Shown: positions 14,904 to 59,089 of the stretch, piece by piece | Layout of the letters: the number at the start of each line of letters is the position of its first letter | Position numbering within the stretch: position 1 is the stretch's first letter | NCBI GenBank assembly: GCA_964016885.1 | Contig: OZ024742.1 | Span: 127,472,001 to 127,536,000, forward strand | DNA from: Eledone cirrhosa | Lineage: Eukaryota | Reading direction: 5' to 3' | Length of the DNA stretch: 64,000 bases | Position numbers and translations under genes: made by a program | Notes under the pieces: generated by a model | Seen by the model: the letters and a program-made list of their open reading frames with translations, nothing else | Told to the model about the DNA's origin: nothing | Database searches by the model: none

Positions 14904-15293
14904 ATATATATATAAAGGTTTACATATATATATATATACATATATACATATACGTGTTTTGCAACGGGTCACTTTGTGGCTCAATGAAAAGTTAATAAAT
15001 TAAATAATCAGAGCTATATATCATAAAACATGTCTATAGAATCACCAGATAAATATATATACCATTTCCTCTCCCAATTAGCATAATTAACCATATAAAA
15101 AATCGAATAGACCAAGCTATAAGAATAAGGCTTCTATGAAGAAATCTCCAACAAATAATAACCGAAACCAGCCCTTCGCGCCGGCTGCGACGGAATATTT
15201 ATCGAATATTTCGACAGCGTAATCGCCCAGATACAGTCAATTAAACAGAATTAGGTGTAAAATAAACTAGGAGAAAAAAGAATACATTTATTT

Positions 15294-15370
15294 ACCTCAA
15301 CCATGGTTTCGTCCGCATTTTAAGATATCCGATAGCTTCGGAACCTTGAGCACTGGACTCTTCAGGAGTT
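15294..15370 (-). ncRNA. Minimal type I hammerhead ribozyme motif in a Penelope-like remnant
   Basis: Minus strand: aactc CTGAAGA GTCC...GGAC GAA ACCATGGT T gaggt; palindromic stem III; the remnant (about 14945-15495) is flanked by TA-rich microsatellite. Confidence 0.75.
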
Positions 15371-15929
15371 AGCTCAAATCTAGACAATAAATTTTCCAAA
15401 GTGATTACTGGTTCCTATTACCCACTCTACTACCCTAAGTATTGAGTACTTTGGTGCATTATGGTCCACCTGGTTCCTTACCATATTTCCTTCGTTATAT
15501 ATATATATATATATATACACATATATATATACACATATATACATATACACACACATATATACACATATACATACATACATATACAAACACATATACACAT
15601 ATATATATACACATATACTTATATATAAATATACACATAAAAATATATCTATCTATCTATCTATCTAAGCGGGTAAAATTCCCGAGATCCATGGACGAGT
15701 TCTCTCAGCGTGGGTTTTGGCTGTGTAAAAAAGATTATAACAAGAAGATAGAAATATCAAAAAATTCAAAAATTCCGCAATAGGGGAGAAACTTCCGAGG
15801 GTCACTCGTGGTGAAAACCACACAAAAGACCACAGCAACCCTGACCACCAGGGCAAGCGCCCTCTCTCAGTTTTCCACTCCTCAGTCTACAGGCGCATAA
15901 TCAGAGCGGGCCCGGTCAAACGCCGGAAA

Positions 15930-19488: not shown

Positions 19489-19545
<57 letters not shown>

Positions 19546-19575
19546 AGATCAAAAGATGGTTAAATGAGTTCCATG

Positions 19576-19646
19576 TATTTTATTATGCGCATTTCAAAAA
19601 CAAATATCATCATGCAATAACATTTGTGTTTTCATCAGATAAAATA
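19576..19646 (-). ncRNA. Type I hammerhead ribozyme with palindromic stem III
   Basis: Minus strand: TATTTTAT CTGATGA [long stem II] GAA ATGCGCAT A ATAAAATA; perfect 8-bp stem I and intact core. Confidence 0.9.
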
Positions 19647-19999
19647 GGAGGACATGATATGAAGGTTAAAAACACTTGTGGATAGTGCAGTTTTAAATCA
19701 ACATATGAAAAGTAGTTTTAGATTGATGTGTGATATTGGGGAAAACATTTTTTTAGGGGGGGGGGGTGAAAAAGAGGAGGAGATGGGAGTAAAAAGTGGA
19801 GGGGGAGGAGTATAATGAGGAAGGATGAGATAGGAGGAGATATGGCTGATAGAGAGAGAGAGAGATAGCTTTTATAACTGAGAAAAATATATTGTTTTAC
19901 ATAGAGAGGTTGAAAAACCGTTGGAAGATAATGTATAAATTAAAAGAATTTGAAAATTAACGAAGAGAAAAATAATGTAAAGTTAAGGTTTGTATATTG

Positions 20000-20168
20000 A
20001 AGGGTTTAATAATATGTGCGATGAAAAGAAATTGTTAATATGTATTAAGAATAATATTTAAGGGTTTAATAATATGTGCGATGGAAAGAACATGTTAATA
20101 TGTATTAAGAATAATTTTAAGGGTTTAATAATATGTGCGATGGAAAGAAAATGTTGATATGTATTATT
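20000..20168. repeat. About 60-bp tandem repeat, 3 copies, inside the PLE 3' UTR
   Basis: AGGGTTTAATAATATGTGCGATG at 20001, 20061 and 20120. Confidence 0.9.
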
Positions 20169-20812
20169 AAAAAAAACAGAAGTAATGTAAGTAAGGATAT
20201 ATTGTGAGATGAGCATGAATAAGTTAGATGAAAGTGAGAAAAAAATAATGAATAGAGGAGGAATAATCTAACGTCAAAAAAAATGTTTGTTTACGAAAGA
20301 TTTTTTCAAGGTGATATAAAGTAAGAATATAGTGTATTGTGTAATAATTGTTTCTATGTTAGGCACAGTGAGAAAAGGTACAGATTAGGGGTTAGAAATT
20401 AAAAGAAAAAGAAAAGAAAAGGAAAAGGAAGAAAGGGAAGTGATGAATAGGAATGATATAGAATATGATAAATAACTTTGAAATAAGGTACAAAGATGGG
20501 TATATTTTTAAAGAAGTATATATATATGTGTGTGTGCCTTTGAGAAAAGGATTCTGAATTGATAAAGTTTAGGATATTAGCTGTATACTTTATGGAAAGT
20601 TCTGTGGAATTTATGCAAGCAGATAGAAAACAAGTCAGTGCGTCTATTTATTATAGAATCTAAATTAGATATAATGGTAAAGTCCTACAAACTGTAGAGT
20701 GCTTCTTATCCGATATCTGCATTGCTTTATTGTACTACAATAAAACTCACCTCCTACATATATATAACGAAGGACCATAACGTAACAGAGTACTCGATAC
20801 TTTGGGTAGTAG

Positions 20813-20886
20813 TCCCATGTGGTCTAGTGGTTAGGATTCCTTGCTTTCACCCAGGCGGCGCCTATGTTCGATTCCCGGCATGGGAA
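20813..20886 (+). pseudogene. tRNA-Glu(TTC) pseudogene
   Basis: Copy of 33190-33261 with an anticodon-stem mismatch and disrupted T stem (GGCGCCTATGTTCG versus GGCCCGGGTTCG); only TTT downstream. Confidence 0.85.
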
Positions 20887-21350
20887 CAGCATATTTATAT
20901 ATATATATATGTATATAGGATTGGGGCTAGGATTAGATTTGCTGTATACATAAGGGTGGAGCAACTCTTGTTAATTCTCTCCTTCACGTGTAATGAATCG
21001 GGTGAATTCTATGATATTTTCGTGTTCATATTTCGAGATGTAAAAGTAATGATATCCTCTACAAGAAAGACGAAGTGTACAGCACAATGTAGAGGAGAAC
21101 CAAGAGAGGTAAATACAGGAATAGCTTGGATAATCGAGGTAATACAATATGACATTGCTATGACAATCGAGGTAATATAATATCACATTGCACCCCATGC
21201 AACAAATCACTGCATGTCGTGGTGTGGTCCTTATTCGGGTGGAAACAGTATATATGGATAGCACCGATTCACTCAATCGATTACCTACACCTTATAAGTT
21301 TGCTTGTCCGGATCTGACAGCGGAGACACAACGTTAACACATACGTGACA

Positions 21351-32450: not shown

Positions 32451-33189
32451 TCGATCTTTCAAAAACTAGCCTTTAAAATTCTCTTTCGAATATTTTCTAT
32501 TCACTCGTGGAACAAAGAAAAAATCTTTAATTTATAATAAATAAACCTCTTTCGAATACTTTTAAATTAGCTGATTAAGAATAAATACAGAAAGCAAATA
32601 GTTTTATAATTGTCATTAATGAATTATTTTACTGGTGTCGTTCACTACTCCCACTAACACTCTTCATGTGCCAAAAGTAGAAACAATTATTATTATACGT
32701 ATTAATTCCGTATGAAGTTCACAGTACCTAGTTCTAAAGTGAATGTGTAAAAAGCGAAATTTGTTAGATGAAAAACGAAACTCTAAGAGAAGCATAGTTC
32801 TATTAGTACTGCTCTTGCCGCAAACATTACATACCGCTAACTCAGACTACTACCCAAATTGTAATTATATATATCCATGTGTTCATGCTTAAGTAGGATA
32901 GCTTATTGTAATAGAAAGTGCTTTGAATGATTGAATATACATTGTAGTAATTATTTTCTTTCACACGCTTAAATGTCATACAAAATGTGATATATATTGA
33001 CGCTGAAAAGGGAACGTTTCAAGCAATAATCTCAAAGTGGGTTTCATAACTAGTTACTGATGTAAAACTATAGTCTCCAACATGACTATATAAAAAAATT
33101 ATAAACTGAAGCATTAACAATCAAAAGAAAAAAAACTACTACAATAATTTATAGTATTTAGTTAATAATATTTCATACGATTACAGTTG

Positions 33190-33261
33190 TCCCATGTGGT
33201 CTAGTGGTTAGGATTCCTGGCTTTCACCCAGGCGGCCCGGGTTCGATTCCCGGCATGGGAA
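33190..33261 (+). tRNA. trnE-TTC: tRNA-Glu (anticodon TTC)
   Basis: 72-nt cloverleaf TCCCATG...CATGGGA-A, anticodon arm CCTGG CTTTCAC CCAGG, intact A and B boxes. Confidence 0.96.
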
Positions 33262-33268
33262 CGGCATA

Positions 33269-33274
33269 TTTTTT
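33269..33274 (+). terminator. RNA polymerase III terminator (T6)
   Basis: TTTTTT begins 8 nt after the tRNA-Glu discriminator base. Confidence 0.85.
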
Positions 33275-33439
33275 ATATACTTTTTTTTTGTGAAATTTCA
33301 ATTTATATACTATTACGCTGAAACTTCGAAATCAGTATTTTACCTGAATACGTTATTTCAATCTACACCTGCATTGATTCTTATTCATTTTCGAAATAAC
33401 TAACATTCACCTCCTTTTCGCTCTTGTCTTCTGACGCCT

Positions 33440-57782: not shown

Positions 57783-57850
<68 letters not shown>

Positions 57851-57859
57851 AAAAAAAAG

Positions 57860-58175
57860 AACAAAAGATGGTTAAAAGAGTTCCATGTATTTTATTATGC
57901 GCATTTCAAAAACAAATATCATCATGCAATAATATTTGTGTTTTCATCAGATAAAATAGGAAGACATGATATGAAGGTTAAAAAACACTTGTGGGTAGTG
58001 CAGTTTTAAATCAACATATTTGTTTTTGAAATGCGCATAATAAAATACATGGGTCTCTTTTAACCATCTTTTGTTCTTATATATTATGTATACTCAAGTC
58101 CTACAAACTGTAGAGTGCTTCTTATCCGATATCTGCATTGCTTTATTGTACTACAATAAAACTCACCTCCTACAT
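57860..58175. mobile_element. Penelope-like inverted pseudo-LTR pair
   Basis: 57860-58018 matches 19547-19706; 58016-58077 is the reverse complement of 57860-57919 and continues into the tail also seen at 20681-20760. Confidence 0.8.
57888..57958 (-). ncRNA. Type I hammerhead ribozyme, second copy of 19576-19646
   Basis: Same core CTGATGA...GAAATGCGCATA and 8-bp stem I. Confidence 0.9.
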
Positions 58176-59089
58176 ATATATATATATACGTATACACACA
58201 CACACACGTATATATATGGGCCTTCCACTTTCATTTCACATTATATACATGTCTGTGTATATTTTAATTATTTTTAAGAGAACATGATTTAAAAAAGATA
58301 TTTTGAAGTGAATGTGACCCAACGGGTCACAGGTGGTCTAGCAATATAATAAAGGGAGTGCGGGACAGCATCCCTTTTATAATTTTTTATCCCGTTAGTA
58401 AAATAAATTGGATTACTTTGAATAAGTAATGAATGAATATTAAGTAATTTATCTACTAAATTTTGTAGCTCTTGATTAAACATAAATATTCTTATATATA
58501 AAGTATTGCTTATTTTAAGATTCACTTCTTTAAAATTTTCAAATGTCAATATTTCCGGTTAGCGTCCGTTATATTATAACACTTATTACATCACTTATAT
58601 AAACGTTCATATATTTCCATCGTTATATAAGATTTATATTTAGGTCACTAATTTTCTACTTTTCCGTTTCCATAAAATTTTAGTTTATTATATATGGAGT
58701 TTATACATAATATTGTCTTTTTTTTAATGTATCATGGATTACTTTACTGATTACAGAAGAGAGTGTAACACAGTCTCTCTTCAATTTCTGTGCATATTAC
58801 ATGCATATATAGTTGCATATAATATTAATATACACACTACACATGGTAGCAGAAAACCACCCTTTGTGTGTTTTTTTTGCTAGTAAACCATAATTTTCAA
58901 TCAGTTTCAAATTAGTTAATTTAAATTTTCATTTTCACTTTAAATGCATGAATTAGCTATATGGTATTTACACAATTAAATTATTTTGGGCGGTTTTCTG
59001 CTAGCAATTGTAGTGTACATATTGGTTTTATATGCAAATATATATGCTTATAGATATAATATGTAAATTGAAAAGTAAATTGACAATAT

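Follow-up and report, generated by a model that had tools for sequence, protein, structure and literature searches.

A purified Penelope protein has been reported to cleave and extend both strands, with reverse transcription beginning at two internal positions, one at each limit of the tail (PMC11167929). An inverted arm followed by a tail is the layout described for endonuclease-bearing Penelope-like elements of the Hydra clade (PMC8557442), and fold-back self-priming on an antisense template has been proposed as the origin of inverted Penelope ends (PMC3846280). Law and Burns take opposite orientation of the two parts as the mark of twin priming in chimeras of antisense tRNA and LINE-1 (bioRxiv 10.1101/2025.02.02.635956).

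We analyzed a window of 64,000 nt from Eledone cirrhosa (contig OZ024742.1) in which a Penelope-like end and a tRNA-Glu copy are fused at 20767–20896. We consider it fairly probable that this fused unit is a single insertion, made by twin priming on element RNA and pre-tRNA-Glu between two TA runs. As in the antisense tRNA/LINE-1 and 5S/LINE-1 chimeras (bioRxiv 10.1101/2025.02.02.635956), a small RNA lies inverted at the element's truncated 5′ side, and the explanation is two reverse transcriptions that start from the two ends of one break. Unlike the tRNA/LINE-1 chimeras, the partner here is Penelope-like rather than L1, the target is (TA)n without a readable duplication, and the tRNA precursor was copied whole and unprocessed, leader and trailer included, whereas the L1 cases described are mostly 5′ halves.

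Read along the plus strand, the left (TA)n target arm (20758–20766) is followed by the terminal piece, or tail, of an element family that we call family A (20767–20812, sense strand minus, identified from genome matches and ORF-bearing copies). The last five letters of this piece (20808–20812) form a junction overlap that also matches, on the plus strand, the leader of the tRNA source gene. Next come a tRNA-Glu(TTC) pseudogene on the plus strand (20813–20886), part of the source gene's 3′ trailer, also plus, which stops after three of six T (20887–20896), and the right (TA)n target arm (20897–20917). Both target arms are read directly from the letters, and the (TA)n bounds of the unit are as the sequence-only reading had given them.

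ARAGORN and Rfam identified two tRNA-Glu(TTC) in the window, one at 20813–20886 with 34.1 bits and the other at 33190–33261 with 66.5 bits. The latter belongs to the likely source gene, 12.4 kb away on the plus strand (33185–33274), with its leader at 33185–33189 and its trailer and T6 terminator running to 33274. By BLAST, 20808–20905 aligns with 33185–33279 at 89.8% identity over 98 nt (E 2e-31) and similarity ends there, in agreement with the earlier claim that it runs from 5 nt before the tRNA through the trailer and then stops. The 3′ limit is blurred, as five source letters past the T6 also suit a (TA)n target. There is no CCA at the 3′ end of the copy. These limits show the tRNA part to span the predicted Pol III primary transcript, from −5 to the source T run, as had been proposed.

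The anticodon stem of the copy has a G-to-T substitution at 20842, and its T stem is broken by a complex change near 20860–20865. It is followed by just three T, where a functional gene needs T4 or longer. Nothing at the locus points to a function, the fused unit being a dead pseudogene, and the product of the insertion is predicted to be inert. The complex change spans six letters directly 5′ of the T loop, and it could be a trace of stalling or re-priming at the T hairpin.

A public short-read contig covers 20784–21648 with 0 differences, although its run is possibly the assembled sample itself; since the contig spans the junction between element and tRNA without difference, that junction is not an assembly artefact. 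The unit is single-copy: an exact pattern of tail plus D arm has one genome match, this locus, and a DNA search found no second full-length fused unit among the 40 scored of 603 candidates. It is therefore neither the multicopy unit of a SINE nor a SINE precursor, as a transcript from its tRNA promoter would also run away from the element piece. Segmental duplication is ruled out, because the flanks of copy and source differ beyond −5 and the T run. Four sequencing runs were compared and none was informative on an empty allele: contigs from the three runs of other organisms leave the unique right flank uncovered, and such gaps in cover carry no weight as evidence for one. Target duplications are unreadable inside the (TA)n.

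With up to 3 mismatches allowed, the 41-mer at 20772–20812 matches the genome 2500 times (control, 0), so that a normal tRNA flank, once a possible refutation of the earlier reading, is ruled out: the piece is the end of a repeat. The match to the minus strand of a remnant at 15.4 kb was reproduced (41 nt before the tRNA-Glu copy against 15467–15427, 35/41, E 5e-8). The remnant is nevertheless ruled out as donor, as 22 other copies match at 40/41. The piece at 20767–20812 is an end of an abundant, (TA)n-targeting, Hydra-like Penelope family. The earlier description of about 45 bp of Penelope-type sequence thus holds as to its nature, but the piece begins at 20767, directly on the left TA run, and an internal deletion has removed 23 nt from between two GGA triplets. 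The AGTAG before the tRNA, previously taken as its leader, does match the source leader at four of five letters, but in the 29 other family A copies read the family sequence carries on through the same letters; 20808–20812 is therefore best read as a junction overlap. We estimate the chance of such a 4/5 match in register at about 0.016.

Longer copies of family A establish its polarity. They bear RT and GIY-YIG fragments on one strand (L124/L348 and others), and 5 of 13 coding loci (L116, L117, L119, L127 and L128) have a complete tail on the ORF sense strand, downstream of the query region; at L348 the tail runs on into the ORF. From the position of the tail in these ORF-bearing copies, the sense strand of the element at our locus is minus, opposite to the tRNA on plus. 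The family A end and the tRNA-Glu copy are joined head-to-head, with the 5′ end of the small RNA at the junction, as twin priming predicts. A switch of template between the element's own RNA and the pre-tRNA, the mechanism favored by the sequence-only reading, would instead give both parts the same orientation.

Family A encodes a single ORF with an RT and, C-terminally, a GIY-YIG endonuclease. Among 132 longer homologues of its protein (homologues are about 700 aa), P0071 has a Pfam GIY-YIG domain (E 1e-5) and aligns with the family A C-terminus (E 2e-25); a direct Pfam scan of three family A fragments gave a weak RVT_1 hit and nothing else. The translations of L348, L127 and L116 contain DKT, the CxCX5C linker, and CxxC and CxH around a conserved E and N, while the RWK position holds a stop in the single copy read and RWR in relatives. 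Together with TA targeting, the motifs DKT, CxCX5C, CxxC and CxH fit the Hydra clade as described in PMC8557442, an assignment suggested by these translations. The pLTR of family A has a three-stem fold on the sense strand (z −1.87) whose core is not a canonical hammerhead. At E up to 5, Rfam found no hammerhead in family A, in a second family at 15.4 kb (family B) or in the non-coding family F described below, and its search missed the family B motif too.

The family inserts into (TA)n, and its ends have a regular architecture. In 51 of 59 sampled ends the fixed end lies at TA; of the 59, 29 came from the 41-mer search and 30 from a census pattern with 497 hits, swamped by self-matches of the element. 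A self-inverted arm was flagged in 47 of the 59 (two pairs among the 47 being duplicates of one insertion), and it stops about 70 nt before the tail end, again at TA. At L348 the element sequence goes on with TAT at both start sites, which suits a (TA)n primer. By eye, the 12 ends without a flagged arm comprise four that are longer element, four that stop in simple repeats, two with arms overlooked by the script and two that run into unrelated sequence. Family A thus has a pLTR, an inverted truncated arm and a one-sided tail. It shares this layout, the TA targeting and most motifs with the Hydra-clade elements (PMC8557442, PMC11167929), but its tail is about 70 nt against the 30–40 given for them. 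At our locus, the tRNA-Glu copy occupies the place of the usual inverted arm. Unlike in the Hydra-clade elements described, the inverted arm is a foreign host RNA and not the element's own sequence.

At 14953–15495, a family A tail of a different subfamily (15405–15495, plus strand, from sequence comparison) lies head-to-head with a 5′-truncated family B copy (14953–15405, minus strand, from genome hits), the same plan as the tRNA unit with family B as the foreign arm. The best genome hits of the family B query end at query position 256 or earlier, which is window position 15405, and upstream family B continues differently from the remnant. The hammerhead-like motif, formerly tied to the piece matched by our locus, belongs to family B, which is joined to the family A tail only at 15405. 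The end of another TA-terminated repeat, family C (20680–20760), is context outside the insert, and the left TA run is its terminus. It has 38 genome matches, the best of them 100% identical, and all 20 that were read go on into TA runs; an identical copy lies at 58096–58182 in the window, and that 87-nt identity reflects a dispersed repeat. Because the 81-nt end is identical across many dispersed copies, family C is young. Its copies at 57848–58182 and 19530–20760 have long inverted arms.

The source gene has been copied elsewhere. A trailer pattern gave six genome hits (control, 1): the focal copy, the gene at 33190, which alone has gene-like unique flanks, and four dispersed 5′-truncated copies joined to other repeats. 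All four truncated copies reach the T run or stop just short of it; two of them carry target duplications of 14 and 12 nt. Since dispersed copies end in or near its T run, the precursor of this gene is a substrate for retroposition. A fifth copy, L029, begins at −5 as the focal copy does, and −5 is likely the start site, judged from these shared limits. Same-orientation chimeras of the gene also occur, with partners that are SINE-like or other repeats; we assigned the SINE and LINE labels without a library, from A- and B-box-like motifs and simple-repeat tails. More widely, pre-tRNA 3′ ends (Glu, Lys and Asp) are fused in the same orientation to SINE-like 5′ ends at L063, L064, L065, L066, L291, L316, L025 and L026. 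L063 and L066 bear target duplications, and this U6/L1-like class is frequent in the genome. Like the U6/LINE-1-type sense chimeras, our locus joins, within a single insert, the copy of a Pol III transcript to the end of a retroelement. Those chimeras, explained by template switching or RNA ligation, are co-directional, whereas the focal unit is head-to-head; L063–L066 fit the co-directional type.

Further tRNA copies at an element junction, of the kind for which the sequence-only reading had proposed a search, do exist: Arg behind family A, and Asp, Lys, Ala and an Arg fragment behind family F. Searching for a T arm behind the family A tail gave 10 hits, one of them a tRNA, Arg(ACG) at L131; this pattern is no full census, as it cannot detect the focal locus, whose T arm is altered. 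L131 consists of an A tail and a second element piece in the same direction, a leader of 4–7 nt, the tRNA-Arg, its trailer and TA; the trailer passes the first T4 by 10 nt, and the source array is 2.4–2.6 Mb away. A reverse-orientation search behind family A found 8 hits and no tRNA, a weak result with two tRNA cases at family A in all, and another census pattern gave two hits and no tRNA. A relaxed ARAGORN run returned mostly TA-repeat noise. L131 and L121 (1430–1650) contain co-directional joints of two Penelope-like families, A to E and E to A respectively, which suggests switches between element RNAs.

A pattern of T arm, T run and TA matched 31 times (control, 3); from 30 of these, 10 were picked by eye and read, and five are tRNA 3′ ends. 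The T-run endings of these Asp, Lys, His and Arg-fragment copies were preset by the search pattern, but their 5′ limits and their partners were not. Three of the five directly adjoin family F: an Asp copy with its leader starting at −7 and its source array on another contig, a Lys copy starting at −6, with its intron kept and identical to a gene 1.37 Mb away, and the Arg fragment, whose source array is on another contig. The other two, the His copy L252 and the tRNA fragment L245, are flanked by TA at either end, and neither is joined directly to a partner. The His copy starts at about −25 and its source is on another contig; a fold-back arm as the identity of these 25 nt is ruled out, as they are the source gene's own upstream sequence. 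That upstream sequence (L325:1500–1620) is complementary to the trailer over about 9 nt, which lengthens the acceptor stem, and the copy, on C6, includes about 25 nt. The intron of tRNA-Lys(TTT) genes, about 19 nt, varies by locus, and the copy at L240:1431–1522 has that of its source, L290, unchanged. Large tandem tRNA arrays lie at G000:C3:277.24–277.42 Mb and G000:C4:297.73–297.92 Mb. One repeat unit, about 1.34 kb long, has Glu and Asp on opposite strands; the other, about 2.08 kb long, carries Arg(ACG), and many of its copies are degenerate.

Family F (L283:1495–2780 and L270–L288, found by similarity search) is a second TA-targeting repeat, a non-coding tandem monomer of 1.0 kb with 1716 candidates. 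Its copies are 97–99% identical and young, and they contain no ORF and no Rfam hammerhead. They start at a fixed TA junction and have a variable end with partial tandems, often followed by foreign sequence; a self-inverted arm was not seen in the copies read. The fixed end and the partial tandems, from which its polarity is deduced, suggest that family F lies antisense beside the tRNA copies, as family A does. A similarity sample of 19 family F copies includes one whose arm is Ala plus trailer (its gene on another contig) and one with a tRNA-like arm. Behind family F position 572, L280 has a 78-nt arm with A-box and B-box-like motifs in which ARAGORN calls no plain tRNA, and behind position 976, L270 has a 153-nt foreign arm that finishes at (TA)n.

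Four of the five leader-bearing copies begin at −4 to −7 and the fifth, His, at about −25. Of the seven sources traced, three are no more than 2.6 Mb from their copy in a 3.0-Gb genome, and four are on other contigs. The nearness of sources fits the capture of nascent RNA close to its gene, and it fits local DNA copying as well.

The twin-priming reading would proceed as follows. A TA repeat would be cut on both strands by the GIY-YIG nuclease. The first of the two 3′ ends would prime on the element RNA at the usual internal start, and the first cDNA would halt after about 70 template nt, having skipped 23 nt. The other 3′ end would prime on an unprocessed tRNA at its 3′ tail, which ends in U; this RNA, caught in the nucleus close to its gene, would be copied to its 5′ end. 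The two cDNA ends would anneal through the 4/5-nt overlap, and the gaps would be filled in. We regard this as the best reading because it covers the orientation and the overlap, the TA junctions on both sides, and a tRNA part as long as the transcript. No target duplication is readable in the (TA)n and no empty allele was found, so a single event is likely rather than certain.

An origin in two steps is improbable, though it is the best placed of the alternatives. A pre-tRNA retrocopy would have entered a TA repeat and family A would later have entered the left TA arm, with the intervening TA lost, or the order would have been reversed. The His copy and the fragment L245, pre-tRNA copies lying between TA runs without a joined partner, are what the first step would leave, and TA runs in this genome are repeatedly struck by nested elements. 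But the deletion must then end exactly at the leader, with similar accidents in the five other chimeras, none of which retains a TA run at the junction of element and tRNA. The similar divergence of the element piece (1/41) and the tRNA part (in about 84 nt, two point changes plus the complex one) also speaks against two steps, at low power.

Slightly less probable again is a patch copied from DNA, in which a host polymerase would have copied about 90 nt of the tRNA gene during repair of an abortive family A insertion, through short end matches. The source is just 12.4 kb off and the letters after its T run suit TA, as such a patch would need, and both observations count against twin priming. 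So does L131, which runs 10 nt past its first T4 and hence passes its terminator. Short matches at both junctions, the 23-nt deletion and the complex change within one insert, and the three sources within 2.6 Mb also fit DNA copying. However, the 5′ limit of −5 recurs in the distant copy L029, limits of −4 to −7 recur in three other chimeras, and four sources are on other contigs; the four further copies of the 33190 gene that end in or near its T run, two with target duplications, indicate that the precursor RNA itself retroposes. Intron retention in the Lys copy does not separate RNA from DNA copying.

A template switch, in which a cDNA begun on the pre-tRNA jumps to the element RNA, is very unlikely: Penelope elements have been suggested to use antisense templates (PMC3846280) and co-directional joints of two families occur (L121, L131), but the geometry demands that the element be transcribed antisense from a fixed 5′ end, and the end at the left TA is the fixed end of 51/59 copies, downstream of the ORF on the sense strand, as a priming site on sense RNA predicts.

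The kind of chimera is known from L1. In the literature searched, with most subscription papers and supplements outside it, a Penelope/tRNA chimera, whole unspliced precursors and the replacement of an inverted pLTR arm were unreported. As in the trans-mobilization between pLTRs in Adineta vaga (PMC3846280), unrelated, unspliced host sequence would have been moved by Penelope machinery. The Adineta vaga cargo lies between direct pLTRs acting in cis, whereas the tRNA cargo here has no element sequence on its priming side.

Extending the twin-priming reading beyond this locus, we tentatively propose, at a little under even chances, that TA-targeting Penelope-like machinery routinely primes its second arm on a nearby U-ended RNA, including unspliced nascent pre-tRNAs near their genes. 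The inverted pLTR would then be an independent second reverse transcription and not a fold-back, and in these genomes a telomerase-related RT would have left a fossil record of where Pol III starts and terminates and of nuclear neighborhoods. Fold-back cannot supply a foreign RNA in the position of the arm, and such chimeras therefore discriminate between models of inverted Penelope ends. If the proposal is true, host Pol III precursors would be trans-mobilized by the Penelope class of RT without any element in cis.
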